Of a stretch of 64,000 nt of DNA, positions 2,860-50,078 are shown piece by piece; the first letter of the stretch is position 1, and each line of letters starts with the position of its first letter. Both the position numbers and the translations under genes were made by a program. A model generated the notes under the pieces. It made no database searches and was not told where the DNA came from. It saw nothing but the letters and a program-made list of their open reading frames with translations. The stretch comes from Lytechinus pictus (Eukaryota), in the NCBI RefSeq assembly GCF_037042905.1, contig NC_087250.1:27468001-27532000 (forward strand). Direction: 5' to 3'.

Positions 2860-4917
2860 TTTTTTAGAGAGTAAAAAAGGGGCCTAAGCTTTCGATCCTA
2901 GCAGAATCTTCGTCGGAGGCAAAATGACAAACATATAAAGTGGAACAACCATAATATAGACCACAGACAAGCTACAGCAACACTAGAAACAAGGAGACAA
3001 AAGGGGCATAAGTGAGTAGAGAAGACCAATCAGGTTAGTGAAGGGGATGAAAGAAAAGGAGTAGGCAGACACAAAGGGAAGTTAGTGTAAGTAAGGCCAG
3101 TAAAAGACCTCAAGCCAAGAGGGATTAAGATAATGAGGCAGGCAACATCAAACAGGATCTGGAACAAAACAGTGATATAGAGGGTATGAGGAAGAGATGA
3201 ATAACAAGATAATTAGTGAGAGGTGGGTCAAACAGGTTACAAAGAAAGGCATAATAAACTGGTGCATATAAGAGTGGGGAAAAAAAGGAAAAGAATGGGG
3301 AACAACTGGTAATGTGCAAAAGACATATAAGTATATATATGATAAAGCATTAAACAAACTAAGAGAAGAAGGTAAGTGTAAATATGTAACTATAAGTGAT
3401 ATGTATATAAATATATCCAAAAAAGAAATGTATATGAAAAAATATAAATACACATATGGTGTAACTGATATTGTAATCCGCTAGGTGTGACAGGAAAAAA
3501 CATAAGACTATATATATAGTAGGGGAAAAAAAACAAAAAAAACAACAACCTGTATTTGTGAAAAAGAGGAAGCAAATTGCCTAAAAAGGTAAAAGCAAAT
3601 ATAGAAGAGAGGGGGTGTATTATGAAGAAACCATAGTATACATGTAAATAAGCAAATGTGGTAAATCTAAAAGAGGTGAGTGGAGAAAAAAAAAATATAT
3701 ATAATAATTATTATGTCGCCTGAATAAGGAAGGAAAAGTGGGAGGAAAGTAGAGGAAGAAACTATAATGTATCTATTCAAAAGAGCTGAGGGGAAAAAAT
3801 TATATGTATATATAAATTGAAAGTGGATAGGAAAGAAAAATCAGTCGTTCCCCTCTTGGATGTTCAGGCCATGAGGTTGGGTGGTGCGAAGTCGTCTCAT
3901 CCAGAGCTTCTCTCTGCTAGTACGGACTGAGTCAGGACGGTACCTATAGATTCGATGCCCTGTAGCATCATGTCAGTGATGGAGTGGTTGGGGAGGTTAA
4001 AATGGCGGCCAACTGGAGTGTCCAGCTTTGCTGTGTTGACGGTGGATCTGTGCCCGTAGAATCGTTTCTTGAGTGTGGTCTTGGTTTCCCCTATGTATTG
4101 TACCCTACAAACTCTGCAAGTGATGAGATATACAACATTAGTGGTAGTGCATGTGATGTTGCCCTTGATTTGGTGAGACAGGCTGGTGGAGTTGCTGGTG
4201 AAAGTGTCGCCCTCGTGAAGAAGGTGTATTTCACATATATGATGCACCTGTTGCTGGTGCATTTGAAGGTGCCATGCTGTATATGGGAGAAGAATGGTTA
4301 GTGAGGGAGGGTACTTCAGCACGAACAATGAGGTCCCTGAGATTCGGTGGGCGTCGGTATGCTAGAAGGGGAGTATCGGGAACGGCCTAGCCTGTTGGAG
4401 ACGATCAGAAGTGTGTAAAATGTGGTGGTTATCACAAAGGATTTTGCGGAGAGGGGGTAGATTGGGATGGAAGGTGGTCACAAGCGGTATTCTGTCGGTA
4501 GTCTCCTTGTCACTTTTAGGTTTGAGAACTTCAGATCTGGGGAGAGAACGAACTTTGTTAATTGCCAGTTGGACTGCCCTGGCCCCGTGGCCCCTGGCAC
4601 AGAGATGTTTCTGCAAATTCCTGGCATGGAAGGAAAAATCAGGGTCCTCGGAGCAGATACGGCGAAGTCTGAGGCCGGCTTGACTGCAAGCGATGCCGGT
4701 TTTGCAGTGACGGGGGTGGCAGCTGGATGAGTGGAGGTACTGGTGGGTATCTTTGGGTTTAGAGTATAGGGTATATAGTGGTGATACTGTTAGACTTTTT
4801 CTGGACTGTGACATCAAGGAAGTGGGTTTCCTGTTGGGAGAAATCAGAAGTGAATTTGATGGTCCTGTGGAAAGAATTGATGTGGTCAATGAATGTATGG
4901 AGGCTATCTTCATCCCT
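2860..4917 (-). mobile_element. 5'-truncated Penelope-like retroelement (RT C-terminus + GIY-YIG endonuclease + long 3' region), frameshifted
   Basis: YSKPKDTHQYLHSSSCHPRHCK..LRLRRICS, DRIPLVTTFHPNL; GIY-YIG NVVYLITCRVCRVQYIGETK..LKKRFYGH; C-terminal REKLWMRRLRTTQPHGLN ending at stop 3841-3843. Confidence 0.9.
2882..2920 (-). ncRNA. Minimal type I hammerhead ribozyme motif (variant core) at the 3' end of the Penelope element
   Basis: Minus strand GCCU CCGACGA A GAUUC-UGCUA-GGAUC GAAA GCUU AGGC: stem I GCCU/AGGC, stem II hairpin, GAAA, palindromic stem III; core is CCGACGA rather than CUGANGA. Confidence 0.7.
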
Positions 4918-7330: not shown

Positions 7331-9585
7331 TTAGCTGCGGGTATGAGCTGATTTTTCTCATCTTCTGCACTTAAACTGCAGATCCGATGCGTTATTTCAT
7401 GAAGCTAAAAAATGGAATTATTCCATGGACCATTAAAAAAAAAAAATATCTACAATTTCAAAATACTTTACTCTGCAGTGCTGCCAAAAATCACGAATAT
7501 TACCCCGAGTTTGAATAAATGGGAGAGTGGTTTTGTTTATTTCTTCACATAGATACAAAGCATTGGGTGCATTTTTGGTGTTTCAAAAAGCACATTTGCT
7601 CTAATAAAAATGCTGATAGTTTAAAAACAAGCACATGAACCCCTATTTTTTAATGTTTGTACCTCTTAGGTATACCTTCCTCTGCAACTCTGCAAATTTT
7701 GGTGAAAATGACATGGATTTTGAATAAAGTGCAGCATTTATTGTACGTTTGTAGTTTGTTACTGAAATTTCACATTTTTTAGATTGGGATTTTGTTATCT
7801 CTTACGTCATTTTTAAGAACTGACAGTGCTGTTAAACTTAAAATTGCAAACAAATAGCACTATGAATAGATTCTCCATTCTAACGATACAATTATTAACT
7901 CTCTTGCGAAATTTGATGACCTTTTCACGTATTTTGACTGAGTAATAGAGAATTAAACTCATTGTAGTAATCTTGGACGGTCTAAAAATGCCAAATTCTT
8001 TTGAATGCGCAATTCTTAAGAACATCAATTTGGGTGAACTTTGAAGCTCTATAGCAAAAAATCAAGCACATGGACCTATGTTAATTTTTGCATATTTCGA
8101 GTATTAAGGTTCTAAAGTATCTATGTGCAAAGTTTGGTGAAAATGACATGGATTTCACTTTAACTGTGGAATAAATTTAGTACACTGTAAAGATTTAGGC
8201 GTGTTTCATATTCACACATTCTTGGTGATGAATGAAAACGTCAAAGTTCATTATGAAATGACATGCGTTGTGCGAGGTTAGTACAACTAACCTCGCATGC
8301 TTGTGTGAGTGGGAGTGTTGGGACTGTAAACAATGCCGGATAGATCTGGACCATTTCTGCACAGCGATTTGGAGATCGCTGATTGGTCAATCATGTCATG
8401 ACTACGTGGTCGCCAAAATAATTACTTCGGACCGCGTACGGAAGTATCGATAGCGGTAACGATATCCTGTCACATTGTATACGGTCTTGGTTCGTGATCG
8501 GATCGCTCCAGCTCAGTGTAGGCCTATTGATAGAATATTATCAAGACGCTGCAATTTATTTTATGCATATTCAAGCGACGCTCCAAAAGGCAGTGGCTGG
8601 ATGACGTAATTTAATAAGGGTCTTTGTTCTGAAAACGAGCGTACACTCTTCAACAGCACGCATTTCCCATTCAGTCGGCAGAAATGTTGGATGTTTTGGA
8701 GAGTGCCATATTAGAAAGGGTGTCAAATTTTCCGCCGTGGGGAACTCCCGTGGTGGCCATTCCAGTTTTTCTTGCGATAGATTGAACAAGTGCGAGCGCG
8801 GCAGCGATATTTCTGGTGGAAATCACTTCCCCCTTATGAGATTGTCTGTCTTGAAAAGAATAAAGATTTACCATCATCTTCATTTTACAGTCACCATGAT
8901 CTCCAAAAGAGTGGAGGTATCACCTAAGAGAGAAAGAGAGAGTGATCTCATTGTCAAAAAATTTACAAGCAAAGTGTATCATTATCATGTTCTAGATAGA
9001 TGACACAATATTATTTTAACTCTTAGCCCACCACGAACACCCTCCTGCGCCGCATTAATTTCAAGTGCAACCTTTAGAGGGGTTTAGCATGGACTCTGCT
9101 AATACAGCTCACTTAAGCTTTTGTTTGGTTTAGTGTAAAGAAAAACTTTGCGATGCACTCATCACTAATTTGTGTATGAACAATAGACTAATTGCACTTG
9201 GTTTGTATTGTAAATTTATTTATTTATTTATTTATTCATGCATGTTCACAATATACAATGTAAAAGAATACACAGATAATGTATAAATATATATATATGA
9301 AAACACAAGTAAATAATGAACAAAGGTGTTACAACATAAGCTAAAAGCTTGATTGGTTGAAGCACCTTTAAACTGGTTTTGCATCCAAGAAAACAAAATA
9401 AAAATGTAAGAATAAGGAAGAGAGGAAATAGAATGTGGCTTGAATCTAACTTGGCTGTCTGCTCTCTGTGACTAGTTGAACAATGCAGGCAGAGTTAATA
9501 ATCTTTTTGTTTAATTCTTTCTTCCCACCTTTCCTCAGAAGGATGTGTACCAAAGATTTACTCGAAGGAGTATTGTTTGCAGAAG

Positions 9586-10173
9586 ATGAATAGCATGATT
9601 CAAAGAACAACAAGACTTGTTTCATCTTGTAGACTTCAACTACAGGTGTTTGCAGCATGTCACAGTCACTCGCATACAGCAAGGCATAGTGTGTTTCACT
9701 TTCCTAGTCTAAAAACACATGGAGGAGAGGCTAATGTTTTGCTTAATGGCAGAGTTTTTAAACGGAATCTGTCAGCATTATCACAACGTAGATCAGAGTC
9801 AGACATTTGTAAACTCCAAAGAGCTCTTTGCAGGAATTTGAAACAAAGCTCGTCATTGCTATGTCAGATGAACCAAGTTAATTGCATATGTGTCGGTCCA
9901 AGGAGATTCAAGGATAGTAGACAGATGTTGAATAGACCGGTACATCATCATTTCTCAACAATAGCTTTATATTCTGTACTGAATGTTTGCCGCAAGAGAA
10001 GATATAACCAGTCTGCAGTCACTAGTGCCTTCACATGTTGCAGAGTTCAAAGGTATGGATCCAGTGCTGTTGGAAATGAGACCGGTGATCCCCTCTCACC
10101 TAAGAGCCCACAGTTCAGATGCTACATGGATCATCTGAGAAATGAGCACCAGGCCATCTCAGATAGACTTCAG
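9586..10173 (+). CDS. MTRF1L: MTRF1L coding exon 1 (basic, presequence-like N-terminus)
   Basis: Open frame ending CAG|GTTAGT, phase 0 matches the next exon. Confidence 0.7.
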
Positions 10174-13100
10174 GTTAGTACCATTCTCTTTCCTGCAGTA
10201 GTATTGAGAGGAATCTAACATTTTATTTACCTGTTCAGGGATCTGTTTCATTAAACTTGTTTTAAACAAATCTGCAAAGCTAATGAAATCCTTCAATGTG
10301 ATTGGCTGGTAGTAAATTTGTTATTGAAATGGTTCATTATAATAAGTCTAAGTCATGGGACAGAGACCCGTTTCCACAAGCAGTTGTAAACATTAGTGCA
10401 ACATGCGTACAAACCTTGATTGTGATTGGTTGCTGAGCCATGTTTAAATTCAAATTCAAATATATTCAACACTCATCATAAAAACACATTATAATATTAT
10501 AGAAGTAGAACATAAAGGGAGATGAATATAAGATATAGAATGACAAAACACAAGGTATAAACATAATGAGAGTCTCAGGGTTAGCAGAAAGGAGGAGATT
10601 CCTTATATAATTGCTACCCCCAACAAAATCCTAAAATTGAAAGTGGTAGATGTACATAAAAAATACTACACATAAGAAACTACACTGAGGTCGTTCAATC
10701 CCCGATCGAGTCATACCAAAGACTTGCAAAAATTGCGACCTTCTGCCTTCTTTTAGGCGCAGAATTTAGATTGGAGAAGGGTAATAATAACATTATTATG
10801 CCCACTGGTAAAGTAGTTTCCTAACTGAAGTGGCTACTCTAGGTAAATAAAACATTATTAATATTACTTATTATAGATATAAGATACAGCAGTTATATTT
10901 TCCCTTTTGTTTTGTTTGTTTTAATAGGGAGGGGAGCCGTTGTCAGACTCTAAACAGAAGGAGCTCCGGGGATCCAGGATGGAGCTTGGTGAGATCCTTG
11001 AGAAATGGAACGAACTGATATCAATGGAAGAAGAGATCAATGAAATTCAGCATCTTATCCAAGGTATGTAGTGGTCTTGATTTAAATGTGATTTTAGAAA
11101 AATATGAAAAATAAGGATAAATTTGTGATATCAGCTGGCATTCTGATAGCTAAAACTAACAGTGATTTTAGTCAATGCTTCTGTGGAATGCAAGTGTTCA
11201 TATCCTCCTGCAGTACACGTATCCATGACAGCTTATTTCCAATCGTCAAATTGCAAACTCGTCTACTATCGTTTGGTCTACCATCAGTTAGTCCACTCAC
11301 CAAATGGTCTACTTTCATTTTAATAGTCTAATGCCATTCTGTCTAATAACCAGTTGGTCCAATAGCCATATACCATTTGGTCTAATTGGACTAAGTGTTA
11401 AATTGTGCAAAGTGAATGAAAGTAATATGGATACTAGACCAACTGGTTATGAGACGAAATGGTCATAGATGAAATGGTGATTAGGTGAAGTGATGATTGG
11501 ACTATTTTTGTTTAATGGACCAAATGGTTGTTAGACGAAATGTTGATGGATGGAATGGCATTAGACTAAATGAAAGACCATGTGGTGAGTGGACGAGTTG
11601 GCAAATACCATAATAGTAACTTTTATGCAATGGGGCACTGATCTTCTTTGCGACCATTTTCTCCTGACTCATTGGAAGTTTTTTAATAGGGCCGTCTGCA
11701 CCAGCCCGAGTTTTCAAATTAGTGCGCGATTTCTGATCCGGTAAATTATCCCGATCTGAAAAATCTCGAAATTATTTGTAATGGAGACGCAATTTCGCTG
11801 GATTAATTTCGATATTGCAATCCCAAGTCAACTTGGGATTATTTGCAAAATAGTGCGCTATTTTCCGAATTATCTCGCTAATGTGCATGTGCAGGTGCAG
11901 ACGCACTCGGGATTATTTATTCATGGCGTCATACCATAATGAGTCGATGCCTTGCTCGAGCAAGAATCGCTCTTCTTGGGATAGTGGACACAGGGTTTCT
12001 TGAATCTCGAGATTAATCACAAAGAGGGCCGATTGGGCTAAAATCTTGAGATTAAGGAAACTCTGGCTTGTGCAGCACTGCCTATTGAGATTGCATTATA
12101 TGCACATCTCATGCTTGAGTGAACCCTGAATATTCTGTTAATCATTAGATGGTCATGATAAAGAGATGCAGGATCTAGCTTTGTCTGAGAAGGATCAACT
12201 TCAGGATAGGATTGAAGATGTATCACAAGAGGTAAGACCAAGAAAATCTCAATAGGCTCATTTTTGTCTCACCTGCATAGCAGAGTGAGACTATAGGCGC
12301 CGCTTTTCCGACGGCGACGGCGGCGTCAACACCAAATCTTAACCTGAGGTTAAGTTTTTGAAATGACAGCATAACTTAGAAAGTATATGGACCTAGTTCA
12401 TGAAACTTGGCCATAAGGTTAATCAAGTATTACTGAACATCCTGCCTGAGTTTCATGTCACATGACCAAGGTCAAAGGTCATTTAGGGTCAATGAACTTA
12501 GACCATGTTGGGGGAATCAACATCAAAATCTTAACCTAAGGTTAAGTTTTTGAAATGTCATCATAACTTAGAAAATATATGGACCTAGTTCATGAAACTT
12601 ATACATAAGATTAATCAAGTATCACTGAACATCCTGCATGAGTTTCACGTCACATGACCAAGGTCAAAGGTCATTTAGGGTCAATGAACTTTGGCCGAAT
12701 TGGGGGTATCTGTTGAATTACCATCATAACTTTGAAAGTTTAAGGATCTGATTCATGAAACTTGGACATAATAGTAATCAAGTATTACTGAACATCCTGT
12801 GCAAGTTTCAGGTCACATGATCAAGGTCAAAGGTCATTTAGGGTCAATGAACTTTGGCCAAATTGGGGTATTTGTTGAATTACAGCCATAAATTTGAAAG
12901 TGTGTTGGTGTAGTTCATAAAACTTGGACATAATAGTAATCAAGTATCACTGAACATCCTGTGCGAGTTTCAGGTCACATGATCAAGGTCAAAGGTCATG
13001 TAAGGTCAAAGAACTTTGGCCACGTTGGGGGTATTTGTTGAATTGCCATCATATCTCTATAAGTGTATTGGTCTAGTTCATAAAACGTGGAAATAAGAGT

Positions 13101-16100
13101 AACCAAGTATCACTGAACATCTTGTGCGAGTTATAGTAGTTTTCAAAATCAGCACTGCTGCTATATTGAATCGCGTGATGCAGGTGAGACGGCCAGAGGC
13201 ATTCCACTTGTTATCTCAGCCATTGTTTTTATGATGAGCTATTTTAAAAGAAGTGATGTTTATTTCTGGCTGCTCTTAAACTATCATTACGTAATGAATA
13301 ATTCTGTAAAGTTCGAAATTGCCTTCTATTGAGTTGTAAAGCAGTTTTTTAACTGAATCGAATTACCCTCATTTTTTTTTACTGATCAATAAAACGTGAA
13401 ATAAGTAAATAATTACCTTTGTTTTGAAGTGAAATTATTGACATTAATTTATTTGGGATGGAAATAGTCCATTAAGATAATTTTTTAGCAATTCGTATGG
13501 TCAAATTTACATTTTGCTTTGATATATACAATATGAATTTATTCTGACCTGATTTGGCAGATGCTAATTATCATTTAATATTGTCATACAATTCAAATAC
13601 TGTTTCAAGGGAGAGGGCCTTCAGTACACAAGGTATTGATAGGCTGCACATTCAGACCCTTATTTACTGGAGTGAAGTGTTTGCACCACAGATGTGGGGC
13701 CAGTTTCATAAAGAGTTACAACTGCTGTAACTTTGCCATTATGGCAACTACCATGGTTACCTTGACTTTGATTGGCTGCTGAGCCATGTTATCATGGTAG
13801 TTGCCATTATGGTAAAGTTACTGCAGTTGTAACTCTTTATGAAACAGGCCCTAGCATTTAATCTTGTCTGATCCATTAAAAGTGAAAAAAGTGCCCTAGA
13901 TGCTGTAACGCAAATCTTTCAATTGAACTTGGACCGATTTTCATGCCTTATTGCATATATGTTGTGATCATTATAACAGCAATCAAGCCAGCAAATCTAT
14001 TGTATGGTAGGGGGTCCTAAAGCTACGCGGGTCCTAAAGCTACGCACCACTCCAATGCGCATGCAGTTTCAATTGCAAAATGCGCACTCTGTGTGTGTGG
14101 AGCTAGTGACTGCAGTGTGACGAACGATTCCTAATCAGTTTTGGTACAGAGGCTGCAATAAATCGCTAAATACAGAGAAAACCAGCGACTGTTTGGAATT
14201 TTGGAGTTATATTCACTTTGATTTCATATTTTCCTATAAGAATATGAACATTATTTAGAAGTTTAGAGACAGGAAATACTTTTTCTTTGCATGATAAATT
14301 GAGTGCGTAGCTTTAGGACCCCTCTATATCGGGCGGCGAAATCAAGAGGTGTTCGGAAAACACGGCGGGATTTTCGTATTAGTGAGTTTTGTGATATTTT
14401 CTTTTTGGTTATGAATCTTTACAATATTTAACACAAATTTGTGAAAGATGATTTGTTAGAATATTAAAATTGGCATAGTTTTTATCGTTTGTAAACAAAG
14501 TGCGTAGCTTTAGGTCCCCCCATCATATACTCTGCGCTATGCCATTTGCTCTGATGAGAATGGCTCTGCTCTAAATTCCACATACTAATCGATGGACCAT
14601 CTTCAACCCTGGGTTTAACACTATACCATATCCTAACATACATCCCATTGCAACCATAACCCTACATCTGAGATAAAATTAAGCCCAGAGCAATTGTTGC
14701 AGGAGTTGTGTCACTGCATAATCAAGCCATAAATATGATCATGATCATTTGACCAGCGATCAAGCTAGCAAATCTGAGCTCCATTGCATCAAAGTTTGTA
14801 GTGTTGTTGAAATAACATAAGAGCCAATGTAGACAACAGATATATGAGATTCAGTCTTGACTCTCTGAGTCCAGTTTAATGTCTGATTCAATGTTGTACA
14901 TTTAGGTGTGGCTTCACTCAAGCACGATAGTGCAATTCAATAGCTCAAATTAAACATGTAATATTACAATGTATGCAGTAAATAACCAGGTGGTGACCTG
15001 AATATCTTAACTGTTAATGCACAACATTACTTTGAATAAATTATAGTTGCATCAATAATTGTATACACAACATTGTTACCATCATGGTAACTTTACCTTC
15101 CAATGGTAAATTGCAGGTAATCCTTGATTTTGATTGGCTGTTGGTCGTTGTTACCATGGTAGTTACCATTGGATGACAAAGAAATCATAATACTTTTTAT
15201 GCAACGGGGCCCCAGTGTCTGATCAAAGGTTTGTGTGACAGTCCATTCCATCTAATTTCTTTTGTCTTTCCTCTATAGTTGGTTGACCTTCTAATGTCAT
15301 CCGAAGAGACTGATGATAATGATGTCATAATGGAGTTTTCAGCAGGAGTGGGAGGTCAAGAAGCTATGCTGTTTGCCTCTGATATGTTTGACATGTATCA
15401 ACGATATGCAGATTACAGACGTTGGTCCTTTACAATCCTCGAGTACTTTACCTCAGATATAGGTTAGTAAAAGTCGTATTGTTTGGAACTGGAAAAATGT
15501 TGATGAAACGCTCCCCTGTGATAAAGGAGTCTTTGTTATGTGTGAGTAGCATGATCATCATGGTATGTTATTTTGTTGACTCTGAGACGATAGCTCTTTT
15601 CTGTCCTTGATATTTTCCTCGGGTATCATATTGCAAAGCGTGTTCAGATCTTTTAAAACCAATTGACTGATTGCAAACAAAATCGGTAAATGGACTGACT
15701 AATCAAGACCAATGTTACTTGTGCATTTTGTTCAACATACTAACCAGGAACCAATCAGAAGTGTTCTTTTATATTTACAGGTACTTTTTTTTCTTTTGAT
15801 CCCCTTTCCTTTCTCTCTCCATATATCTCTTGATCCTGGCAATATGCAAGAATGTACGAATGTAGTCTTGGAAGTTTTCATTATACCTAAGATCAATGGT
15901 ATACAGTATACAGGATATGTTTAAACATTGTACCGTAAAGTGTAATTAATGAAATGTATACTTGTTTTTGTAGTTGTGTAATTCCCATTCATTTCAGTTT
16001 GTTAACTAATGTGGATAATTTAAATTAATACCATTTATCTACATGTATCGATCTATTCATCTATCAATGCCTGATCTTTTCAAATCAGTTTATCTGGATA

Positions 16101-19100
16101 AAGCAGTTTCTATTACCGAAGAGACCACCCTGTCTAAAAAAATAGATAAATCAGTTACTTCAATTTTTTTTCCTAGGTGGATTAAGGCATGCTACCGTTA
16201 GTATCACCGGTGATCAAGCTTATCGTCTTCTAAGACAGGAGGCTGGCGTCCATCGTGTTCAGAGGGTACCAAAGACAGAGAGACAAGGGCGTATACATAC
16301 AAGCACCATGTCAATAGCGGTACTTCCACAACCTAAAGAGGTATAAACCAAGGGCGTTTACATACTATTTCCATGTCTGTAGTGGTACTACCACAACATA
16401 AAGAGGTACAAAAACAAGGGCGTATATAAACAAGTACCATGTCAATAGCGGTACTACCACAACCCAAATAGGTATAAACCAAAGGCGTATACATACTAGT
16501 ACCATGTCAGTAGCGGTACTACCACAACCCAAAGAGGTATAAACCAAAGGCGTATACATACTAGTACCATGTCAGTAGCGGTAATACCACAACCTAAAGA
16601 GATATAAACCAAGGGCGTATACATACTAGTACCATGTCAATAGCGGTACTACCACAACCCAAAGAGGTATAAACCAAAGGCGTATAAATACTAGTACCAT
16701 GTCAATAGCGGTACTACCACAACCTAAAGAGATATAAACCAAGGGCGTATACATACTAGTACCATGTCAATAGCGGTACTACCACAACCCAAAGAGGTAT
16801 AAACCAAAGGCATATAAATACCAGTACCATGTCAATAACGGTACTACCACAACCCAAAGAGATATAAACCAAGGGCGTATACATACTAGTACCATGTCAA
16901 TAGCGGTACTACCACAACCCAAAGAGGTATAAACCAAAGGCATATAAATACCAGTACCATGTCAATAACGGTACTACCACAACCTAAAGAGATATAAACC
17001 AAGGGGGTATACATACTTGTACTATGTCAATAGCCGTACTACCACAACCCAAAGAGATATAAACCAAGGGCGTATACATACTAGTACCATGTCAATAACG
17101 GTACTACCACAACCTAAAGAGATATAAACAAAGGGCGTATACATACTAGTACCATGTCGATAGCGGTACTACCACAACCCAAAGAGGTATAAACCAAAGG
17201 CGTATACATACTAGTACCATGTCAATAGCGGTACTACCACAACCTAAAGAGATATAAACCAAAGGCGTATACATACTAGTACCATGTCAATAGCGGTACT
17301 ACCACAACCTAAAGAGATATAAACCAAGGGCGTATACATACTAGTACCATGTCTAAAGCGGTACTACCACAACCTAAAGAGGTATAAACCAAAGGCGTAT
17401 ACATACAAGCACCATGTCAATAGCGGTACTACCACAACCTAAAGAGGTATAAACCAAGGGGGTATACATACTTGTACTATGTCAATAGCGGTACTACCAC
17501 AACCCAAAGTGATATAAACCAAGGGGGTATACATACAAGCACCATGTCTATAGCGGTACTACCACAACCCAAAGAGATATAAACCAAAGGTGTATACATA
17601 CAAGCACCATGTCTATAGCGGTACTACCACAACCCAAAGAGGTATAAACCAAAGGCGTATACATACTAGTACCATGTCGATAGCGGTACTACCACAACCC
17701 AAAGAGGTATAAACCAAAGGCGTATACATACTAGTACCATGTCAATAGCGGTACTACCACAACCTAAAGAGATATAAACCAAAGGCGTATACATACTAGT
17801 ACCATGTCAATAGCGGTACTACCACAACCTAAAGAGATATAAACCAAGGGCGTATACATACTAGTACCATGTCTAAAGCGGTACTACCACAACCTAAAGA
17901 GGTATAAACCAAAGGCGTATACATACAAGCACCATGTCAATAGCGGTACTACCACAACCTAAAGAGGTATAAACCAAGGGGGTATACATACTTGTACTAT
18001 GTCAATAGCGGTACTACCACAACCCAAAGTGATATAAACCAAGGGGGTATACATACAAGCACCATGTCTATAGCGGTACTACCACAACCCAAAGAGATAT
18101 AAACCAAAGGTGTATACATACAAGCACCATGTCTATAGCGGTACTACCACAACCCAAAGAGGTATAAACCAAAGGCGTATACATACTAGTACCATGTCAA
18201 TAGCGGTACTACCACAACCCAAAGAGATATAAACCAAGGGCGTATACATACAAGCACCATGTCAATAGCGGTACTACCACAACCCAAAGAGATATAAACC
18301 AAAGGCGTATACATACAAGCACCATGTCTATAGCGGTACTACCACAACCCAAAGAGGTAAAAAACCAAGGGTGTATTTATACTAGTATTATATCTATAGC
18401 ATTACTGCCAAAATCTAAAGAGATGCAACCTAACAAGCACCATTTCTATAATGGTACTACCACAGCCTAAACAGGTGCAACTTTCCACAAACATAAAATA
18501 TTTGAGAATGTTGGTAAAATAGCTTCATAATGTTTTGAAAACTTTTTAGAACACTCTGAAATCATTTTGTGTTTGCTTAATACCCACCTCACTATTGTTT
18601 GTCTTATTGGTTAAAAGTTTTAGTTATCTTGCATTTCAATCTGTAGCAAGTAGGAAGTATTGTGACATCACTGTCATAGCATTAGTTTGCCTCTCCCCTT
18701 GTTAGCTACAGTATATACCTGTGCAGCTTAGAATACATGTAGTTATTGGCTAATTCTATGAAGTAAAAAATACCAGCCATGACTTGAAAATAAAAATAAA
18801 ACTCTAATACCTTGGTCACATTTGCTCTATGGCAGCCATACGGCAAGTAAAGAACAGCTTTTTAATCATTTTTTTTTACCAGCTACATAGGTGATGTGAA
18901 TAAAAATGAATAAAATGGCTGTTTTCGACTCGCCGTACGGCTGCCGTAGAGCAAATCTGACTGAGGTACTAGTATTAGTTTCATATTCCTGTTGCATGGC
19001 CTGAATACATAAAATGGATGTGTTTGGATTACTATAAATAATAAATTGTTCTAATTTCTGTTTTGGGCATAAAATTTTGTATTCCTTTCATTCTGAATTT

Positions 19101-22100
19101 TTACTCTTTTAACTTAGATTGATCTGAAACTGGACCCTAAAGATCTGAGGATTGAAACAAAGAAAGCTAGCGGAGCAGGAGGTCAGCATGTGAATACAAC
19201 GGACAGTGCTGTTAGAATTACCCATATACCAACAGGTATTATATATCTACTACAGACAGTGCTGTTAGAATCACTCATATACCAACATGTATTATATATC
19301 TACTACAGACAGTGCTGTTAGAATCACTCATATACCAACATGTATTATATATCTACTACAGACAGTGCTGTTAGAATCACTCATATACCAACAGGTATTA
19401 TATATCTACTACAGACAGGTATTATATATACATGTGGGGGTTTTCTGCCCCTAAGACTACGGTGCGTCCCCGAAAAAACTATACACTTTTGAAATAGCTG
19501 CCAAATAAAAAGTATATAACTTCGGGGGGAAAGACTTATATATATGGAAAGCCAATAAAGTCATCAAATGACATCAAAATGTTGGAAAACTATTCATGCT
19601 TGAGTAAGCACTACCCACTTAAACAGAGGGTATGAGAATTAGGGTGGGCAGGAATTAGCCTTTCGGTTTCTTTCAGTTTTTGAGAGGCGAGTCCCTTGGA
19701 ACTTGCAAACTTGAGGGTGTTGTGATGAATTAATGGTCATTCATTATCAATTTAAATTGTTAGAGCAAATTTCATGAATTATCAAATTGAAATTCCATGC
19801 ATGAGTGAGCGCGAATTGCAAATCTTTAGTGCAGCATTTTAACTTTACAATGTGGGTCTCAGCAGTGTGTTGATTGGAGTCAGGAGAATAGGGGTAAGAA
19901 GTGACTTCAGTGGGTGAAGTAAGCTGATGGACCTACAGGTCCGTCCCCCCCCCCTCCTGTTGAGAGTGAGACTGATTGCTATTACATGTACGCATTAAGT
20001 GCAGAGCGGACTGTCAATTTGATAATAAATTCTGAAAATTAGGTCATCAACTTTTACCTATCAATCATTTAATCAACAATCTGTTAGTAAATCAACTCAA
20101 TCAATGTGATCAATCAAATATTCATCTTTTTCAATAAATTATCATTCAAACATTCAGCTTTTTCAATAAATCTTTTCATTAATCATCATAATTAGTCAAA
20201 TTCTTAATAATCATTCAATGGAAAAGAAAGACCCATCAACCATAATTCACTTGGCATTTAAGTTTTAAATACCATCAAGGAGAGAGAAAGGGGGTGGAGG
20301 GCAGGCATGAGTACATGACATGTAATTTGTAAGAGAACACAAAGAAGAATGCCCCTTTAACCCAGTTTTACCATATCTCACCCCCTTGCATGTAACAGGT
20401 ACCATCACATTACTCTGACTCTCACAACCACACTTGCTAAGATCCACATAATAAACTAAAAATGCTACACTAAAATTACAATTCCTGTTTACTCATGCAT
20501 TACATTTCAATTTAGTAACTCATCAAATTTGCTTAAGAAACCAAAACTGATCTCAATTCATCAGTAATTTAGCATAACACCCTTAACTTTGCAAGTTTCA
20601 AAGAACTCACCTCTAAAAAAAAGTGGAAGGCTAATTCCTGCTCACCCTAGCAAATGCTAGCCTCTTAGGAGGGGTGAAAGGGGTAGAGAGGGGGGGGGGG
20701 GGGTTAAGTGTTCTGTTGACCCATATCCCGTCAACCTACTTCCCCCACCTAAGACCCATCCCTATTCTGACTTCCATGAACACATTGCTGAGATCCACTT
20801 GAAAAAGTGAAAAATTGTATTTCATGTTCACTCATGCATTAAATTTCAATTTAATAATTCTTGAAATTTGCTCTCAAAAGTAAAAACCTAAACTGATAAT
20901 GCTTGATCATTGATTTATCAAAACACCCTCAACACTGCAGCACGTTTGGTCACCCTATCCAAAAAACATGTTCATATCACACCCATTCTGAAATCTCTAC
21001 ATTGGTTAAAGGTCAACGATCGCATCATCTTCAAAATCCTTCTCCTTGTATTCCATGCAATTAACGGCTCTGCTCCACAGTACAATATTAATCTAATCAA
21101 CAAATACACTCCTGTCAGGTCCCTACATTCATCCAACTCTGGTTCCCTAGTTATTCCCAAATCCGTTAAGACATGGGGGTTCAAGCTTTTGCTCATGCTG
21201 GCCCTGTTCTCTGGAATGATCTTCCCCTGGATATCCGAGAATGCACTTCTATCGACACATTTAAACGTTACCTTAAGACTCGTCTATTCAATGATTCTTA
21301 CTCTTAATTGTTCCTGAATCTATTACTATTATATTTGTACTTTTTCTCTTTCTTTCTTTCACTGCGCCTTGTGCACTCTGCCGAGTGGATTCGGCGCATT
21401 ACAAATCACATATATTATTATTATTATAAAAGAAAGGTCTGATGAAACACATGACCACCATCCCATGTTATCAATATTTTTTTAACGATACAGTCCTTTA
21501 TATCAAACGTTAGAAGTTATCTTTATGAATCTTGAATATTTGGTGCATTATACATTATTTTGTCTGGGGTTTGTCAGGTTTGCTTTTATTTTGTTCAATG
21601 CTATGTTAATTATTGTTTTGCATCTTATGTCTTGTTTTAATTTTCAATCTTACTTCTTTTTAAGTTATTTTTTTTTAGGATCAAATGGAAGGACAGGTAT
21701 ATTTTGTAAATATCACTGAAATGGGCTACCCTTCATTGAAAAAATTGTTTTGATTTTCACTTATTTTATTTGTGATTTTAATATGGAAAGTAAAAAAACC
21801 AAACAAACAATCAAAAACTAGGTGAGAGAAGTAGATGTGAACAATTGAGCATATAAGCAATCAAATTCAAGTTGCAGCATCTTCAACAAGTCTTTGACAA
21901 AAGATATATATTTTACTTCTTTCTTATGCCTATTTAGTTCAATTTTGTTTTGATCTTGAATAAGGTATCTCGGCTGAAAGTCAACAAGAGCGTTCCCAAC
22001 ACAAGAATCGTTCGATTGCCATGACGATGCTACAGACTCGAATCTACAACCGGATCCTTGAAGACCAGACCAACTCTGAAAGATCGATGCGTCGTTCACA

Positions 22101-22326
22101 GGTGGGCACAAGAGGGCGCTCTGAAAAGATTCGTACTTATAATTACCAGCAAGATAGGATCACGGACCATCGGATCAGTCGTAGTATCCATGGAGTAATG
22201 GAGTATCTACTAGGATCTGAACACTTAGATGAAATGATGGTTAGTTGTATGGAAGGCGAGGAGTGTCAGAATATACAAGAAAGAATCCTAGAAGTTTATG
22301 ATATGAGCAAAGAGAACTCAAGATAG
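9586..22326 (+). CDS. MTRF1L: Mitochondrial peptide chain release factor 1-like; coding exons 9586-10173, 10928-11063, 12149-12231, 15279-15462, 16177-16340, 19118-19235, 21965-22326 (~544 aa if the first ATG is used)
   Basis: All six introns are GT-AG and phases join in frame; motifs [20 protein letters not shown] (PxT), [55 protein letters not shown]. Start codon uncertain. Confidence 0.93.
10689..10875 (+). mobile_element. 5'-truncated tRNA-derived SINE-like fragment
   Basis: B-box-like GTTCAATCCCC, ends AATAAA + (ATT)n-like tail. Confidence 0.4.
10928..11063 (+). CDS. MTRF1L: MTRF1L coding exon 2
   Basis: Polypyrimidine tract + [33 protein letters not shown]. Confidence 0.85.
12149..12231 (+). 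CDS. MTRF1L: MTRF1L coding exon 3
   Basis: [37 protein letters not shown]; supplies the required phase 1 to 0 change. Confidence 0.85.
12261..13212 (+). mobile_element. Non-autonomous Helentron-like (HINE) element with ~5 internal 162-192 bp tandem repeats
   Basis: T-rich ends, asymmetric subterminal IRs GTCTCACCTGCA / TGCAGGTGAGAC, GC microsatellite near the 5' end; near-identical copy at 23113-24079. Confidence 0.75.
13696..13851. mobile_element. Short palindromic MITE (Harbinger-like GGGCC ends); relatives near 10237, 15070-15213, 27333
   Basis: GGGCCAGTTTCATAAAGAGTTACAAC / GTTGTAACTCTTTATGAAACAGGCCC. Confidence 0.6.
14004..14526. mobile_element. MITE with repeated GGTCCTAAAGCTACGC terminal motifs
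   Basis: Motif occurs twice at left and inverted at ~14303 and ~14500; TA flanks. Confidence 0.55.
15279..15462 (+). CDS. MTRF1L: MTRF1L coding exon 4
   Basis: [27 protein letters not shown]. Confidence 0.92.
16177..16340 (+). CDS. MTRF1L: MTRF1L coding exon 5 (PKT motif)
   Basis: [40 protein letters not shown]|gtataa. Confidence 0.93.
16284..18480 (+). repeat. 65-bp tandem array (~34 units) derived from the last 57 nt of MTRF1L exon 5 plus the first 8 nt of the intron
   Basis: Unit CAAGGGCGTATACATACAAGCACCATGTCAATAGCGGTACTTCCACAACCTAAAGAG|GTATAAAC; the first unit is the exon itself. Confidence 0.97.
18809..18967. mobile_element. Short palindromic MITE
   Basis: CCTTGGTCACATTTGCTCTATGGCAGCC / GGCTGCCGTAGAGCAAATCTGACTGAGG. 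Confidence 0.55.
19118..19235 (+). CDS. MTRF1L: MTRF1L coding exon 6 (GGQ motif)
   Basis: [39 protein letters not shown]. Confidence 0.93.
19196..19430 (+). repeat. 53-bp tandem array (4 units + partial) derived from the 3' end of MTRF1L exon 6 plus donor site
   Basis: GACAGTGCTGTTAGAAT at 19202, 19255, 19308, 19361. Confidence 0.95.
19460..20900. mobile_element. Tc1/mariner-like non-autonomous element with internal inverted blocks; same family at 63711-64000
   Basis: TA|CGGTGCGTCCC..AAAAAACTATACACTTTTGAA left end matches TA|CAGTGCGTCTC.. at 63711; right end not clear. Confidence 0.55.
20925..21427 (+). mobile_element. 3' fragment of an L2/CR1-group LINE
   Basis: [40 protein letters not shown], typical ORF2 C-terminus; 3' stem-loop and (TAT)n tail. 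Confidence 0.85.
21965..22326 (+). CDS. MTRF1L: MTRF1L last coding exon
   Basis: [40 protein letters not shown]. Confidence 0.9.
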
Positions 22327-22425
22327 GATCACGGACCATCAGATCACTCATAGTATCAATGGAGTATCTACTAGGATCTGAACTCATAGGTGAGATGATG
22401 GTTAGTTGTATGGAAGGCGAGGAGT
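22150..22425 (+). repeat. Partial tandem duplication (169-bp period) of the MTRF1L last exon, spanning the stop codon
   Basis: CAAGATAGGATCACGGACCATC..GTTAGTTGTATGGAAGGCGAGGAGT at 22150 and 22319. Confidence 0.92.
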
Positions 22426-23081
22426 TGGAAGGGGGAGGGGTCACTGTTACTAGCAGGTAGACCTAATGGTCGTATACAGACTTCCCCAGAATTTCTCTAT
22501 TGATTTGCCCATCTTACAGTACCCTAAACAAATCCCTAAACTAAATGATGTCTCAAATGTTGTATTGTAATGAAAATGTGAAGCTTATACCCTTTCCATG
22601 AAATTTTATACCCTTTTTACTGGATGTGCTGATATTGCCTGGCCGTTGAAAACAAGACATTTTACTTGTTATTTTAAATGTGCATTGTGGGCAACTTACT
22701 TTTTGTAGTTGTCCTATATTGAACAAATTTACTTGAAATTAAAGCATCTTCAAAATGAATATTCTCTGTAGTTTTTCTTTGATTCCTTGTTTTATACATT
22801 ATTTTCATCTATTTCGTCTCAAACATTATTATAATCACAAAATTATTAGATCGATTTTAGAATCAATTATTCTTTTTATTTGTACATGAAATTTCTAGAA
22901 ATTTTCTTGCGGTACAAAAGAATTGGTCTCTTATGATTTGAAAGAAGGAATTAAAAAAAGAAACCAAACAGATTGTGCGCCAAATGAATCCAGTTGAAAC
23001 CTGTTTATCATCATTAACCTTCTGTCAGGGAAAAAATTTAATAGATTTAATTCCTTTGATTAGACATATGTTCTGACTTAG

Positions 23082-24750
23082 CCCTAATAAGACTAGGGGG
23101 CCCTCCTTGACATTTTTGTCTCACCTGCATAGCAGAGTGAGACTATAGGCGCCGCTTTTCCGACGGCGACGGCGGCGGCGGCGACGGCGGCGTCAACACC
23201 AAATCTTAACCTGAGGTTAAGTTTTTGAAATGACAGCATAACTTAGAAAGTATATGGACCTAGTTCATGAAACTTGGCCATAAGGTTAATCAAGTATTAC
23301 TGAACATCCTGCCTGAGTTTCATGTCACATGACCAAGGTCAAAGGTCATTTAGGGTCAATGAACTTAGACCATGTTGGGGGAATCAACATCAAAATCTTA
23401 ACCTCAGGTTAAGTTTTTGAAATTTCATCATAACTTAGAAAATATATGGACCTAGTTCATGAAACTTATACATAAGGTTAATCAAGTATCACTGAACATC
23501 CTGCTCGAGTTTCACATCACATGACCAAGGTCAAAGGTCATTTAGGGTCAATGAACTTTGGCCGAATTGGGGGTATCTGTTGAATTACCATCATAACTTT
23601 GAAAGTTTATGGATCTGATTCATGAAACTTGGACATAATAGTAATCAAGTATTACTGAACATCCTGTGCAAGTTTCAGGTCACATGATCAAGGTCAAAGG
23701 TCATTTAGGGTCAATGAACTTTGGCCAAATTGGGGTATTTGTTGAATTACAGCCATAAATTTGAAAGTGTGTTGGTCTAGTTCATAAAACTTGGACATAA
23801 TAGTAATCAAGTATTACTGAACATCCTGTGCGAGTTTCAGGTCACATGATCAAGGTCAAAGGTCATGTAAGGTCAAAGAACTTTGGCCACGTTGGGGGTA
23901 TTTGTTGAATTGCCATCATATCTCTATAAGTGTATTGGTCTAGTTCATAAAACGTGGAAATAAGAGTAACCAAGTATCACTGAACATCTTGTGCGAGTTA
24001 TAGTAGTTTTCAAAATCAGCACTGCTGCTATATTGAATCGCGTGATGCAGGTGAGACGGCCAGAGGCATTCCACTTGTTGGGATAAATCTGCCGCACAAA
24101 TTTTTTTGACCGCGTCGTTCGCTGAATTTTTTACTTTCAAGTCTCGCGCAACTTTTGACACCAAAATTGCAACCCCCGGGTACGTGGTTCCAAAATTAGG
24201 CAACATTTTGTAAGTGCATGCAGACACAAAATTTCTCGAAAACATGAATTTGTGTACAAATCCAATGGAAATAGTATTTTGAGCCAAAATTCATGAATGT
24301 ATCATTATTTTTCCTTTTACTGCTTAAAATCAATTAATTTCATCTTGTCTATGGTAACAATAAAAAACTAAAAGTCGAAAAACAAAGAAATACATAAGAA
24401 ATTTAGAATACAATAAAACATATACGAAATAAATGTGATGTTGATTTTTTTGCAATAAATTTGATCAGATTCCTATAAAGAGTCTGTGAAACAATATTTA
24501 GCATTTTAGGGTCAGTATTTAGTTAATTAGAGCAAACAGTTGATTTTACGCATAAATTAGCCTAATTATTTAGCAATGAGATTTTTCTCAGAATTTGATC
24601 TCATAGTTTTATAGATTATGCCATGGGTAACGCGCGTGCCAATTTTCGTTGCGATAGCGTGATTGACGGCCGAGATCATAAGGGGGGCTGAATCAGCCCC
24701 CCCCCCCCCCCAGTCTTCTTAGTCGTCGAAATGGCCCAGTCTTTTTAGGG
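23082..24750. mobile_element. piggyBac-like MITE carrying a nested HINE
   Basis: TTAG|CCCTAATAAGACTAGG ... CCCAGTCTTTTTAGGG|TTAA. Confidence 0.7.
23113..24079 (+). mobile_element. Second copy of the Helentron-like (HINE) element
   Basis: Near-identical to 12261-13212 with a longer GGC microsatellite. Confidence 0.75.
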
Positions 24751-32569: not shown

Positions 32570-34720
32570 ACTTCTTTTTTTTTTTTGCTCAATATTTGTT
32601 GTTTGATCTTATACAGCTAATTACAATTTTCTTCATACAACTAGGAAAACTAATGTACATAATGAACATTTATATTATGATATAACATGTATAATGTGAT
32701 GATGTTAGTATCTATTATTTCAAGTGTATATTGCAAGATGAGTAGAAACTATACTTTTTGTTTTTAAAATAATATATTTTCATTATAATTTGTTGTGAAT
32801 TACTAACACTATTGAATAGAAAAAAAAAACCGTTTGTTGATGTATATTACTTAAATCGAGACGAAATTATTCTTACCTACTTGAGAGCTGAAAATAGTCA
32901 AGTGAAAATAGTTCGGAAATATCTTTCTGTATTAATGTATTTAGTAAATTTCGAGAAATGTTTGCCAATGCAATATAAAGTGCGTCCCACAAAAAAACAA
33001 ACCGAAATTTATCGATGATTTATCATAACTTAATCACAAATAAAATAGACAAATGACCTATCATTGTAAAGCTTAGAATCTTCTCTTTCATCTGCAATTA
33101 CTTACATTATTTTTTATTCACGCATGAGTGAGTAAAAACAATTTGAAGAGGGGATACTAAAAAGTCATTTGGCGGGCTGTATCTGGATCTCAAAAAAGAA
33201 AACCGCATTTTGAAAAAGTTCAATATCTGCTCTTTAATTTGATACCTCAATTACAGAAAATGGTCAAGAAATAACAAAGTTCTGGTTATTTGAAATAAGG
33301 TTTGAATTTCAATAATTTCATAAAATGAAGAGGTTTTACAGGCTAGCGTTCAAAATCACTCGACACTCCGTTTTGTTGACTATCAGCCATGCATTAATTC
33401 TTTTGTTAACTATGCGATAGCTTCTGTGGGAAACCGGTGAAAACACGTTTATTTAATGAAATTATGGAAATACAAGCATTGTTTCGAGGGAACATAACTT
33501 TTTTATTTCTTGACCATTTTTTGTGATTAAGGTATCAAATAAAAGAGCAGATATTGAACCTTTTAGGCATGTGATTCTCGTTTTAAAATTCAGATACCCC
33601 CCGCCAAATGAGTTTTTGGTATCCTTTCTTCATATTGTTTTTGCTCACTCATGTGTAAATAAAAAATAATCTCAGTAATATCAGATGAAAGAGGAGATCC
33701 TAGATTTACATTGATAGGTCATTTGTCTATTGTATTTATGATTAAGTTATGATAAATCATCGCTAAATGTCGGTTTCGTTTTTTGTGGGACGCACTGTAT
33801 AGTGATATACAAATTGCTGATCTAATTATCAACCGATCGGAAGAATATCTAAGATTTTAAATTGATCAAAAATACATGGTGTATTTTGAAGTTATTATCA
33901 TAGTTATGAAGAGGATGTTCTTAATACACAAATAATCACGTACTATATAATCAAGAAATTTTGTCAGCATAAATGAAAATAAATGTCAAACAAAATACCG
34001 ACTTTGCTCAATATATGATGTTTAATATATACAGCTGATTATAATTCGCTTCATAAAACTTGGAAAACTATTGTACATAACATGCATAATGAACATTATT
34101 ATGATATAATGTATATCATGATATCTATTATTTTCAAGTGTATATTGAATGATGAGTAGAAAGTATACGTTTGCTTTTGATATAATATATTTTTGTTATA
34201 CTTTGTTGTGAATTACTAGGAAAAAAAGCAAAATTATTGTTGTTGGATAGACTTAAATCAAGACGAAATTAATCTTAAATACTTGAGAGCTGAAAATAGT
34301 CATATGAAAATAGTTAGGAAATATCTTTCTTTACTGTGGGTTAATGTATTTAGTACATTTCGAGAAAGGTTTGCCAATGCAATATATACATGATATACCG
34401 GTAGTTGTATACAAATTACTGATCAAAACACCAATTATCAACCGATCTAACTATATCTTCACTATGGGTTATCTACGACATTTCGAGAAAAGCTTACCAA
34501 TCCACAATGAGTTGTATGCACATTACTCATCTAAAAACCAAGTATCAACCGATCTGAATAAATGCTTAATATTTTTAAACTGATCGAAATCTTTGCAGTT
34601 TTTTTTTTGAGGTCATTATCATGGTGATGGGGAGGGTGATTTTAATGCACAAACAATCATGTAATGTTATAATCAAATAATTTTGTCAGCATAAACGAAA
34701 TTAAATGTAAAAAACCCGAC
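32570..34720 (+). repeat. Diverged local tandem duplication (~0.6-0.7 kb unit); first copy interrupted by a Tc1-like MITE
   Basis: TACTTGAGAGCTGAAAATAGTCA at 32878 and 34280, plus other shared blocks. Confidence 0.75.
32978..33797. mobile_element. Tc1/mariner-like foldback MITE
   Basis: TA TSD; (C/A)AGTGCGTCCCACAAAAAA termini; nearly the whole length is inverted; the paralogous site at ~34385 is empty. Confidence 0.85.
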
Positions 34721-48221: not shown

Positions 48222-50078
48222 CTAAACTCTAGAAAGTGCATCCGCAATAACATTGTCATTTCCCTTGATATGAGTCACGTTCAGCCCATAAGGCTGAAGA
48301 AACAGACTCCAACGGAACAATCTCTGGTTCTTGTTCCTAAACCTTTCGAGGAAGGTTAGTGGATTGTGATCCGTGAAAACGGTCACATCAGGGCAGCTAC
48401 TCAAATACACATCAAAGTGTTGAACTGCCAGCACCAGACCTAGGCACTCCTTCTCTATCGTAGAGTATCTTTGCTGGTGTACATCAAGCTTCTTCGAAAA
48501 GTAGCTCACGGGTTTCATGAAACCCTCTTCATCCAACTGAAGGAGAACTGCACCAACTCCTACCTCACTTGCATCAGTGGCCAGTAGGAACGGATGCTCA
48601 AAGTTAGGAGCCTGCAATACAGGCTTTGAGATAAGAACAGCTTTCAATTTCTGAAAGGCAATCTCACATGGTTTGGTCCAATCAAACTTGGTCCCCTTCT
48701 TGAGAAGATCTGTAAGAGAAATAGCAATGTCACTGAAATTCGGAACAAACTTGCGGTAAAACCCACACATGCCCAGAAACCTCATCACCTCCCTCTTTGT
48801 GGAAGGGGCAGGGAAATCCACAATAGCTTGGATCTTTGCCTCTCGTGGGGCAACGCGTCCATGCCCTACTACATGAACCAAGTAAGATACTGTTGCCTGC
48901 GCAAACTCACACTTGGACAAATTCACAACAAGTCCTGCCTTGGTCAATCTGACAAACACATCTCTCAAGCAAGTTAGATGATCTGACCAGGTATCACTAA
49001 CTACTAGAATATCATCAAGATATACTACAACATTGTCCAGTCCGGCAATTACACAATTCATGAGCCGTTGAAATGTTGCTGGAGCATTCCTCATGCCAAA
49101 TGGCATAACCCGACACTGGAATAACCCCTGTGGGGTCACAAATGCAGAGATTTCTTTAGCCCTCTCTGTTAATGGCACCTGCCAATAACCTTTCATCAGA
49201 TCCAGCTTTGTGATATACCTTGCATTACCAATCTGATCAATGCAATCCTCAATACGAGGTAGAGGAAATGAGTCAGGTTTTGTTACAGCATTGACTTTCC
49301 TGTAGTCAATGCAAAAACGCTGACTCCCATCTGGTTTTGGAACAAGAACTACAGGTGAACTCCAGCAGCTCTGACTAGGCTCAATGACACCGCATGCAAG
49401 CATATACTCAAGTTCCTTCCGCACCTGGCTCTTCTTTCTTGGATTCAAACGGTAGGGATGTTGTTTAATAGGCAGATGATCGCCTACATCAACATCATGA
49501 ATAGCCTCTCCGGTATATCCCAACTTATCTCCACATACTTCAGGGTAATCAAGAAGTATTTGCACTACATCCTGCTGTTCAAAATCTGATAGATGACCCA
49601 ATATCTTTGAGGGATCAGCCATCACCTGTGAGTTATTCACCTTTCCAGACATCCCTTCACCAATCTCCGCTTCCACCGGGATTTCAAGTTCTGCAGGAAT
49701 ATGTTCTGCTGCCTTTTCACAAACAACAGCGTCTGTCGCCACCTCGTCACGATCATAATACTTCTTCAGCATATTAATATGGCAAACCCTCTTTGTTTTT
49801 CTCCTGTCTGGAGTACTCACAAGATAGGTTTCTTTACCCAAGTTCTTCTCTACCACATATGGACCACTGAACTTTGCTCTAAGAGGTTCACCCTGGATGG
49901 GCAGTAACACAAGGACTTTGCTACCAGGCTCGAATGAGCGAGGTTCTGCCTTCTTATCTGCCCGGGCTTTCATTGCACCTTGAGACAACCTCAAATGTTC
50001 CCCCGCGAGTTCACACGCCCTCAAGAGTCGTTCACGAAATTGTGACACAATCAAGCACATTCCCACTCTCCATCCCAA
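48222..50078 (-). CDS. pol C-terminal part: integrase tail (GPY), reverse transcriptase, RNase H
   Basis: FSGPYVV, WSSPVVLVPKPDGSQRFCIDYRKVN, LDLMKGYWQV, MPFG, YLDD, TDAS, EKECL, TDHNPL, ADALSR. Confidence 0.93.
   Translation of the reverse strand: MGWRVGMCLIVSQFRERLLRACELAGEHLRLSQGAMKARADKKAEPRSFEPGSKVLVLLPIQGEPLRAKFSGPYVVEKNLGKETYLVSTPDRRKTKRVCHINMLKKYYDRDEVATDAVVCEKAAEHIPAELEIPVEAEIGEGMSGKVNNSQVMADPSKILGHLSDFEQQDVVQILLDYPEVCGDKLGYTGEAIHDVDVGDHLPIKQHPYRLNPRKKSQVRKELEYMLACGVIEPSQSCWSSPVVLVPKPDGSQRFCIDYRKVNAVTKPDSFPLPRIEDCIDQIGNARYITKLDLMKGYWQVPLTERAKEISAFVTPQGLFQCRVMPFGMRNAPATFQRLMNCVIAGLDNVVVYLDDILVVSDTWSDHLTCLRDVFVRLTKAGLVVNLSKCEFAQATVSYLVHVVGHGRVAPREAKIQAIVDFPAPSTKREVMRFLGMCGFYRKFVPNFSDIAISLTDLLKKGTKFDWTKPCEIAFQKLKAVLISKPVLQAPNFEHPFLLATDASEVGVGAVLLQLDEEGFMKPVSYFSKKLDVHQQRYSTIEKECLGLVLAVQHFDVYLSSCPDVTVFTDHNPLTFLERFRNKNQRLFRWSLFLQPYGLNVTHIKGNDNVIADALSRV

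Follow-up and report, generated by a model that had tools for sequence, protein, structure and literature searches.

Minisatellites spanning the 5' splice sites of two consecutive exons in a predicted mitochondrial release-factor gene of Lytechinus pictus, and the silent differences between their units and the exons

We analyzed a stretch of 64,000 nucleotides from Lytechinus pictus (NCBI RefSeq assembly GCF_037042905.1, contig NC_087250.1, positions 27,468,001 to 27,532,000 of the forward strand; hereafter the window), the + strand of which carries a class I mitochondrial release-factor gene, as recognized by comparing exon translations with Pfam and with solved protein chains. Exons 5 and 6 of this gene each run into a tandem array of intronic copies, and these copies differ from the exons at a number of silent positions. 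With moderate confidence, we regard the arrays as two ordinary minisatellites, and the silent differences as partly the product of silent change on the exon side and partly of exchange between exon and array while the arrays were short. Such swapping of sequence between an exon and its copies probably contributes to the differences. Most of the pattern is as predicted from selection acting on the exon side, and no new mechanism is needed to account for it. The elements on which the argument turns are as follows, in positions of the window.

16177..16340, + strand, exon 5, with the end of the PCRF domain and a PKT motif (Pfam PCRF, E = 8.3e-20; chain 7nqh_BL, E = 9.5e-22)
16284..18430, + strand, 65-bp minisatellite called by Tandem Repeats Finder and parsed as unit 0 (exonic), 31 good copies and one degenerate copy, then a partial copy to about 18476
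19118..19235, + strand, exon 6, with the GGQ motif and the start of the RF-1 domain (Pfam RF-1, E = 2.8e-16; RNA joint from 19235 to 21965)
19196..19206, + strand, 5' member of an imperfect direct repeat flanking the 53-bp unit, the same pair being present in the single-unit gene copies E and A described below
19207..19418, + strand, 53-bp array of four whole units in the phase TGCTG...GACAG (Tandem Repeats Finder; unit layout)

Both arrays start within an exon and cross its 5' splice site, with units that lie head to tail and that fall in the 10–100-bp size range (65 bp and 53 bp). Tandem Repeats Finder placed the first at 16284–18424 (32.9 copies, 91% matches) and the second at 19195–19418 (4.2 copies, 96% matches). 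In the 65-bp unit, the final 57 nt of exon 5 are followed by the initial 8 nt of the intron, with the 5' splice site included. Unit 0 occupies 16284–16348, its exonic part being 16284–16340, with exon 5 ending at 16340, and the GT at +1/+2 is retained in 15 of the 31 window copies. The 53-bp unit joins the last 29 nt of exon 6 to 24 intron nt; unit 0 lies at 19207–19259, units 1–3 are intronic, and the array holds pseudo-donors at 19289, 19342 and 19395, with an additional GTATTATA at 19419. The 3' member of the flanking direct repeat closes every 53-bp unit (for example at 19249–19259), the two members reading ACGGACAG and ACAGACAG. Imperfect direct repeats that flank a unit are of the kind that seeds tandem duplication. 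Each array would have been born by tandem duplication of a stretch reaching from inside the exon across its 5' splice site, 65 bp at exon 5 and 53 bp at exon 6. In run X3 (related label), contig depth over the 53-bp unit was ~3,400–4,700 against ~30–65 in unique exon bins (19135–19396), a depth at which the unit seems to be much more amplified in the related label, or present elsewhere in its genome.

RNA reads were aligned over 18480–22400, from runs X21, X24 (related label, ~1–5% diverged in the contigs shown) and X1. Among the 15 joints listed of 81, the sole one using an exon-6 donor ran from 19235 to 21965 (GT..AG; 14 reads in X21, 10 in X24 and one contig in X1), and none started at 19289, 19342 or 19395. 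RNA depth in the array bin was 0.67 and 0.21, against 18.5 and 7.4 in the exon-6 bin. The first donor is used at exon 6, and the downstream donors and the 33-nt in-frame pseudo-exons of the 53-bp array are not used at a visible level. The extra units of both arrays would be intronic and not spliced in.

The preliminary description had drawn attention to exon 6 at 19196–19234, which does read ACA ACG GAC AGT GCT GTT AGA ATT ACC CAT ATA CCA ACA, and to the three intronic copies (at offsets of 53, 106 and 159 nt), which do read ACT ACA ... ATC ACT. All four differences between the exon and these copies (at 19198, 19201, 19219 and 19222) are at third positions and silent. However, ACT ACA GAC AG forms the 3' end of each 53-bp unit and stands at the same place in the single-unit copies E and A, so that it is better read, from its position in the unit, as a member of the flanking imperfect direct repeat than as a mutated exon copy. 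Since two of the four differences fall in this flanking repeat, only ATT/ATC (19219) and ACC/ACT (19222) are secure post-duplication differences. By our own arithmetic the chance that all would be silent is ~0.05 for two of two and ~0.003 for four of four, taking as a stand-in for exon 6 the 40 silent changes among the 171 possible in the exon-5 stretch (23%), a fraction that also served as the null below. In the 65-bp array the common variants bear out the description, with counts among the 31 good window copies of 20 for ACT, 23 for AGT, 31 for CTA, 18 for CCC and 8 for TCT; its replacement variant GGG>AGG is likewise present, in 16 of 31 copies. The original observation is thus partly confirmed, being real but narrower than stated.

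The contig holds five copies of the gene region, at ~27.004 (A), 27.484 (B, the copy in the window), 27.636 (C), 27.778 (D) and 27.887 Mb (E), and the variation in copy number reported here is variation among five paralogs of one assembly. Besides exons 5 and 6, the comparison of these paralogs draws on the following elements.

15279..15462, + strand, exon 4, with the PCRF domain (open frame; Pfam PCRF, E = 1.6e-18)
21965..22326, + strand, exon 7, with the remaining RF-1 domain and the stop codon (Pfam RF-1; chain 7nqh_BL, E = 2.6e-25; acceptor from the RNA joint)
22319..22426, + strand, non-coding copy of part of exon 7 (source 22150–22265) in the 3' untranslated region (UTR), with seven substitutions and an 8-nt gap, used as an internal control

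Exons 4–7 (828 nt) are open in all five copies, with a ratio of replacement to silent variation (pN/pS) of 0.03–0.23, and 14 of the 21 variable sites are third positions; the exons are under purifying selection. Under such selection, the changes that accumulated on the exon side since the duplications would be silent ones. From A to E the exon-5 array holds 10, 31 (plus one degenerate), 6, 44 and 97 copies, and there are 1, 4, 3, 5 and 1 of the 53-bp units at exon 6. The first three 65-bp units, which are diverged, are common to A–D, and the degenerate terminal units are common to all five; these shared edge units mean that the arrays are older than those gene copies. The interiors of the 65-bp arrays show higher-order repeats and differ greatly in length, and unequal exchange would be what lengthens and shortens them. 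The +1 G of the repeated exon-5 donor (homologues of 16341) has become A in 16 of 31 units of B, 23 of 44 of D, 3 of 10 of A, none of 6 of C and 1 of 97 of E, so that B and D have lost half of these pseudo-donors, and E keeps almost all of its own intact.

The history of the paralogs is not a simple one. In the exon 4–5 block E is the outlier, at 5.3–6.2% from the others against 0.3–2.6% among A–D, and the upstream sequence makes A and C sisters (0.3% apart). In the exon 7 block E is only 0.45–0.65% from A–C, so that the blocks disagree on the copy tree. A clean paralog tree was not obtained, as the blocks conflict and the 3-kb upstream block aligned poorly.

Several of the array states were found as exon states. 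At exon 5 the exon carries CTT in A–D and CTA in E, and CTA is present in all 188 units of the five arrays. With E outlying and CTA in every unit, CTT is most simply read as a silent change on the exon side. In exon 6, copies B, C and D have ATT ACC, A has ATC ACT and E has ACC ACT; among the 53-bp units, those of B and D carry ATC ACT and those of C carry ACC ACT. At 19219 the RNA has C in 13 of 21 reads of X21 and in all 15 of X24, and the spliced X1 contig also has C; the exon state ATC is therefore expressed, and in the related label no other was seen. The CTT of exon 5 and the ATT of exon 6 would accordingly be derived exon states, with the arrays holding the older letter. The suggestion that repeat haplotypes might occur as exon alleles therefore proved right for CTA (exon 5 of E), ATC ACT (A), ACC ACT (E) and ATC (RNA). 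Of the wider proposal, in which the arrays either preserve a different allele or an ancestral form of the exon or swap sequence with it, the part concerning CTA and ATC ACT stands, and the part concerning ACT, AGT, CCC and TCT found no such counterpart in the exons of the five paralogs.

The single-unit copies bear on exchange. In A the 5' part of the unit is of the exon type (ACA ACG) and the 3' part of the array type (ATC ACT); E has the same layout with the ACC ACT of C's array, including the replacement I>T. From these letters, both copies have the appearance of exon/array chimeras. Exactly this arrangement results when unequal exchange between unit 0 and a later unit collapses an array, and we infer that this is what occurred in A and E. 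A short array could thus trade sequence with its exon, and its collapse to one unit would leave an exon whose 3' part came from an array unit. Array states and exon alleles would then have been drawn from one pool filtered by selection. Younger mutations within the long array hit all codon positions. Copy A also carries a ~1.3-kb insertion inside its single 53-bp unit, after the first 15 intron bases of the exon 6 intron. No match to exon 3 was found for copy E within the 20 kb taken, and the I>T that E carries lies beside the GGQ loop; this copy may be defective, though its exons 4–7 are open.

The distribution of variants over codon positions was assessed in the window array and in a pooled set of 188 units from the five paralogous 65-bp arrays. 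The window array has 29 distinct exonic variant states, at codon positions 1/2/3 in the ratio 13/6/10, of which 9 are silent and 20 replacing. The pooled units have 49 distinct states at 18/14/17, of which 13 (27%) are silent (P = 0.35); among the states private to one paralog, 5 of 20 are silent. Unit 1 of the 65-bp array differs from exon 5 by four silent and four replacing changes, and the seven substitutions of the exon-7 copy in the 3'UTR fall at 1/5/1, only one being silent. The premise that the copies avoid replacement changes therefore fails when counted per mutation, and the codon-position check gives an even spread per independent mutation, one of the outcomes that the preliminary description had named as speaking against it. 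A mutation bias toward third positions is ruled out by the 18/14/17 distribution of distinct states. A general rule that exon copies in this gene take only silent changes is ruled out by the 3'UTR copy, by unit 1, and by the penultimate degenerate and terminal partial 65-bp units. The exon-7 copy lies directly past the stop codon in all five gene copies, where it appears as a second tblastn match; the changes in the window copy are mainly replacements, two of them at CpG.

Several points weigh against the account of exon-side change and early exchange. The five commonest states are all silent (of 188 units, CTA in 188, AGT in 162, CCC in 142, ACT in 141 and TCT in 87), and the chance of five silent draws from 13 among 49 is ~7e-4 by our own arithmetic, for a comparison chosen after the data were seen. 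The next four commonest are all non-silent (M>K in 54, a stop in 53, G>R in 51 and Q>H in 40). Only CTA among the five has direct evidence of an exon-side origin, and none of the five paralogs has an exon carrying ACT, AGT, CCC or TCT; for these four, an origin in the exon would have to be supposed. The oldest and commonest variants of the 65-bp array thus include a slight post-hoc surplus of silent states that stays unexplained. At exon 5, unit 1, which adjoins the exon in A–D, has diverged more than any other unit and is shared in conserved form by these copies, so that there has been no recent exchange between exon and array there. At exon 6, the exon of copy A has ATC while the array of its sister C has ACC. 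The single unit of A and E could alternatively be the retained original state, and the copy tree, being mosaic (A goes with B at site 19171), does not separate retention from collapse. The direction of change at each site is our best estimate. The RNA reads give the state at 19219, and 19222 is not among the 40 of 357 rows listed; DNA contigs at 19219 may include array units. Lastly, the five gene copies could partly be assembly duplicates.

It is possible, if unlikely, that chance acting on small numbers accounts for the whole pattern, a few old third-position variants having been amplified with the arrays with no regard to codon position. The 53-bp array has only two secure differences, there is no silent excess per distinct state in the pooled units, and a pooled rank test of copy number between silent and replacing states gave p = 0.098, or 0.18 without CTA. 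Among the 97 units of copy E there are replacement and stop variants with counts of 54, 46 and 40, and the observation itself had been picked out of many windows for its oddness. Against this stand the five top states by copy number, the silent share among states with at least 20 copies (6 of 10, P = 0.014), and the greater abundance of silent states within each array (rank tests, p 0.002–0.03, which are not independent as old variants are shared). Two of the differences also have direct evidence of an exon-side origin.

A different possibility is that the intronic units are not fully neutral, exchange in short arrays letting selection on the protein reach into the intron so that only silent variants become common; we consider this doubtful. 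Were it true, exchange could also push replacements born in an array into an essential gene, the I>T in the GGQ exon of E being an example, and the oldest variants seen in the 65-bp array would be relics of an early phase when it was short. In its fuller form, indirect purifying selection would act on the intronic units as exchange moved them into the exon, purging replacements and letting silent changes spread. The resemblance of A and E to exon/array chimeras, with E's exon having the I>T state of C's array, is what this would produce, as is the higher frequency of silent than of replacing states in all five arrays. However, replacement states are not depleted (36 of 49, the expected share), the unit 1 that adjoins exon 5 has kept four replacements in place since before A–D split, and E's array has replacement and stop variants at high frequency, which makes such selection improbable.

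That the copies are themselves coding, with 33-nt pseudo-exons or downstream donors used in some transcripts and selection acting directly, is very improbable: each 53-bp unit does contain ...CTACAG/ACAG...CAG/GT, an in-frame cassette repeating 11 residues, but cassette exons under selection are rejected for exon 6 by the RNA depths and joints given above, the length of the 65-bp unit is not divisible by three, an in-frame GTA TAA follows exon 5, and the last exon base is T in two of the three window copies of the 53-bp unit.

The arrays of the window belong to a known class, the minisatellites that span an exon–intron boundary. The described example is the 37-bp variable number tandem repeat (VNTR) in intron 7 of human F7, whose first monomer spans the exon 7–intron 7 boundary and in which splicing uses the most upstream donor only (Borensztajn et al., 2006, PMC1557585). 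The same paper names others in IFI6/6-16 intron 2, CBS intron 13, LMNB2 and PDGF intron 4 (PMC1557585). As in the F7 VNTR described there, the arrays here are head to tail, the end of the exon and the genuine 5' splice site lie in their first unit, and further copies of the donor follow in the intron; the number of copies is variable (here among five paralogs), and the most upstream donor alone is used (here for exon 6, among the joints listed). Compared with that account of F7, where 4 of 37 nt are exonic, the exon share here is far larger, 57 of 65 nt and 29–33 of 53 nt, and with units so rich in exon sequence codon positions can be scored. Also unlike the F7 VNTR as described, two consecutive exons of one gene carry arrays, the gene exists in five copies with 6–97 and 0–4 extra units, and the GT has been lost from half of the units of B and D.

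Comparisons between a gene and its pseudogene give differences enriched at silent sites, since the selected branch adds only silent changes. The exons and arrays resemble such a pair in that a selected exon is set against dead copies and the differences are silent-enriched; they are unlike it in that the dead copies sit in tandem against the exon and can recombine with it. In the concerted evolution of tandem arrays, interiors are homogenized and edge units are degenerate and stable. The 65-bp arrays behave in this way, with diverged edge units (1–3 and the last two) common to A–D and interiors with higher-order repeats and of very unequal lengths, except that here one edge unit is a working exon kept by selection. 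Word searches of the literature, which were not exhaustive, found nothing on codon-position bias in boundary-spanning minisatellites. Minisatellites of this class serve as natural models for 5' splice-site choice, and to these the present locus adds a case in which units unusually rich in exon sequence adjoin two consecutive exons, repeated across five gene copies whose arrays differ greatly in length. It lets codon positions be read in dead units and the trade of sequence between exon and array be followed. It is also a warning for annotation, as such arrays mimic exons and donors.

On its predicted translation, the gene is an MTRF1L-like mitochondrial release factor. The Pfam families PCRF and RF-1 match the four exon translations, and the frame of exon 6 contains SGAGGQHVN, with the GGQ motif. 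The closest solved chain was 7nqh_BL, 'release factor 1-like, mitochondrial' (MTRF1L), at E = 9.5e-22 for exon 5 and 2.6e-25 for exon 7, whereas MTRF1 matched more weakly (9e-14 and 1.4e-23). The PKT motif in exon 5 is one that we take to be typical of MTRF1L. The bounds of exons 4–7 were placed from the letters and open frames, and the junction of exons 6 and 7 was confirmed by RNA.

The five gene copies lie within 0.9 Mb (~27.00–27.90 Mb), near the end of the 28.5-Mb contig, the part represented in the window being 9500–22430. A probe from 33000–34200 found seven local copies, with a spacing unlike that of the gene copies. Probes from 33000–34200 and 50000–51200, run against the species' own genome, revealed further local duplicates together with transposon copies, and the duplicated block was not delimited. 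The gene region is either a complex segmental duplication block or partly an assembly duplication.

Other repeats occur in and around the gene. Just upstream of exon 6, at 18742–19003, is a short element with inverted-repeat arms that resembles an abundant repeat of the miniature inverted-repeat transposable element type. Its read depth is very high (up to 288,548 summed word depth in run X3), and opposite-strand joints were seen at 18887/18911. A composite tandem array with periods of 192 bp and 163 bp occurs twice, at 12326–13132 inside the gene beside exon 3 and at 23193–23999 downstream of it. Further along the window, a 194-bp satellite forms two blocks of opposite orientation at 55419–56521 (5.7 copies) and 59497–62533 (15.6 copies), followed at 62712–63196 by an array of 24 copies of a 20-bp unit.

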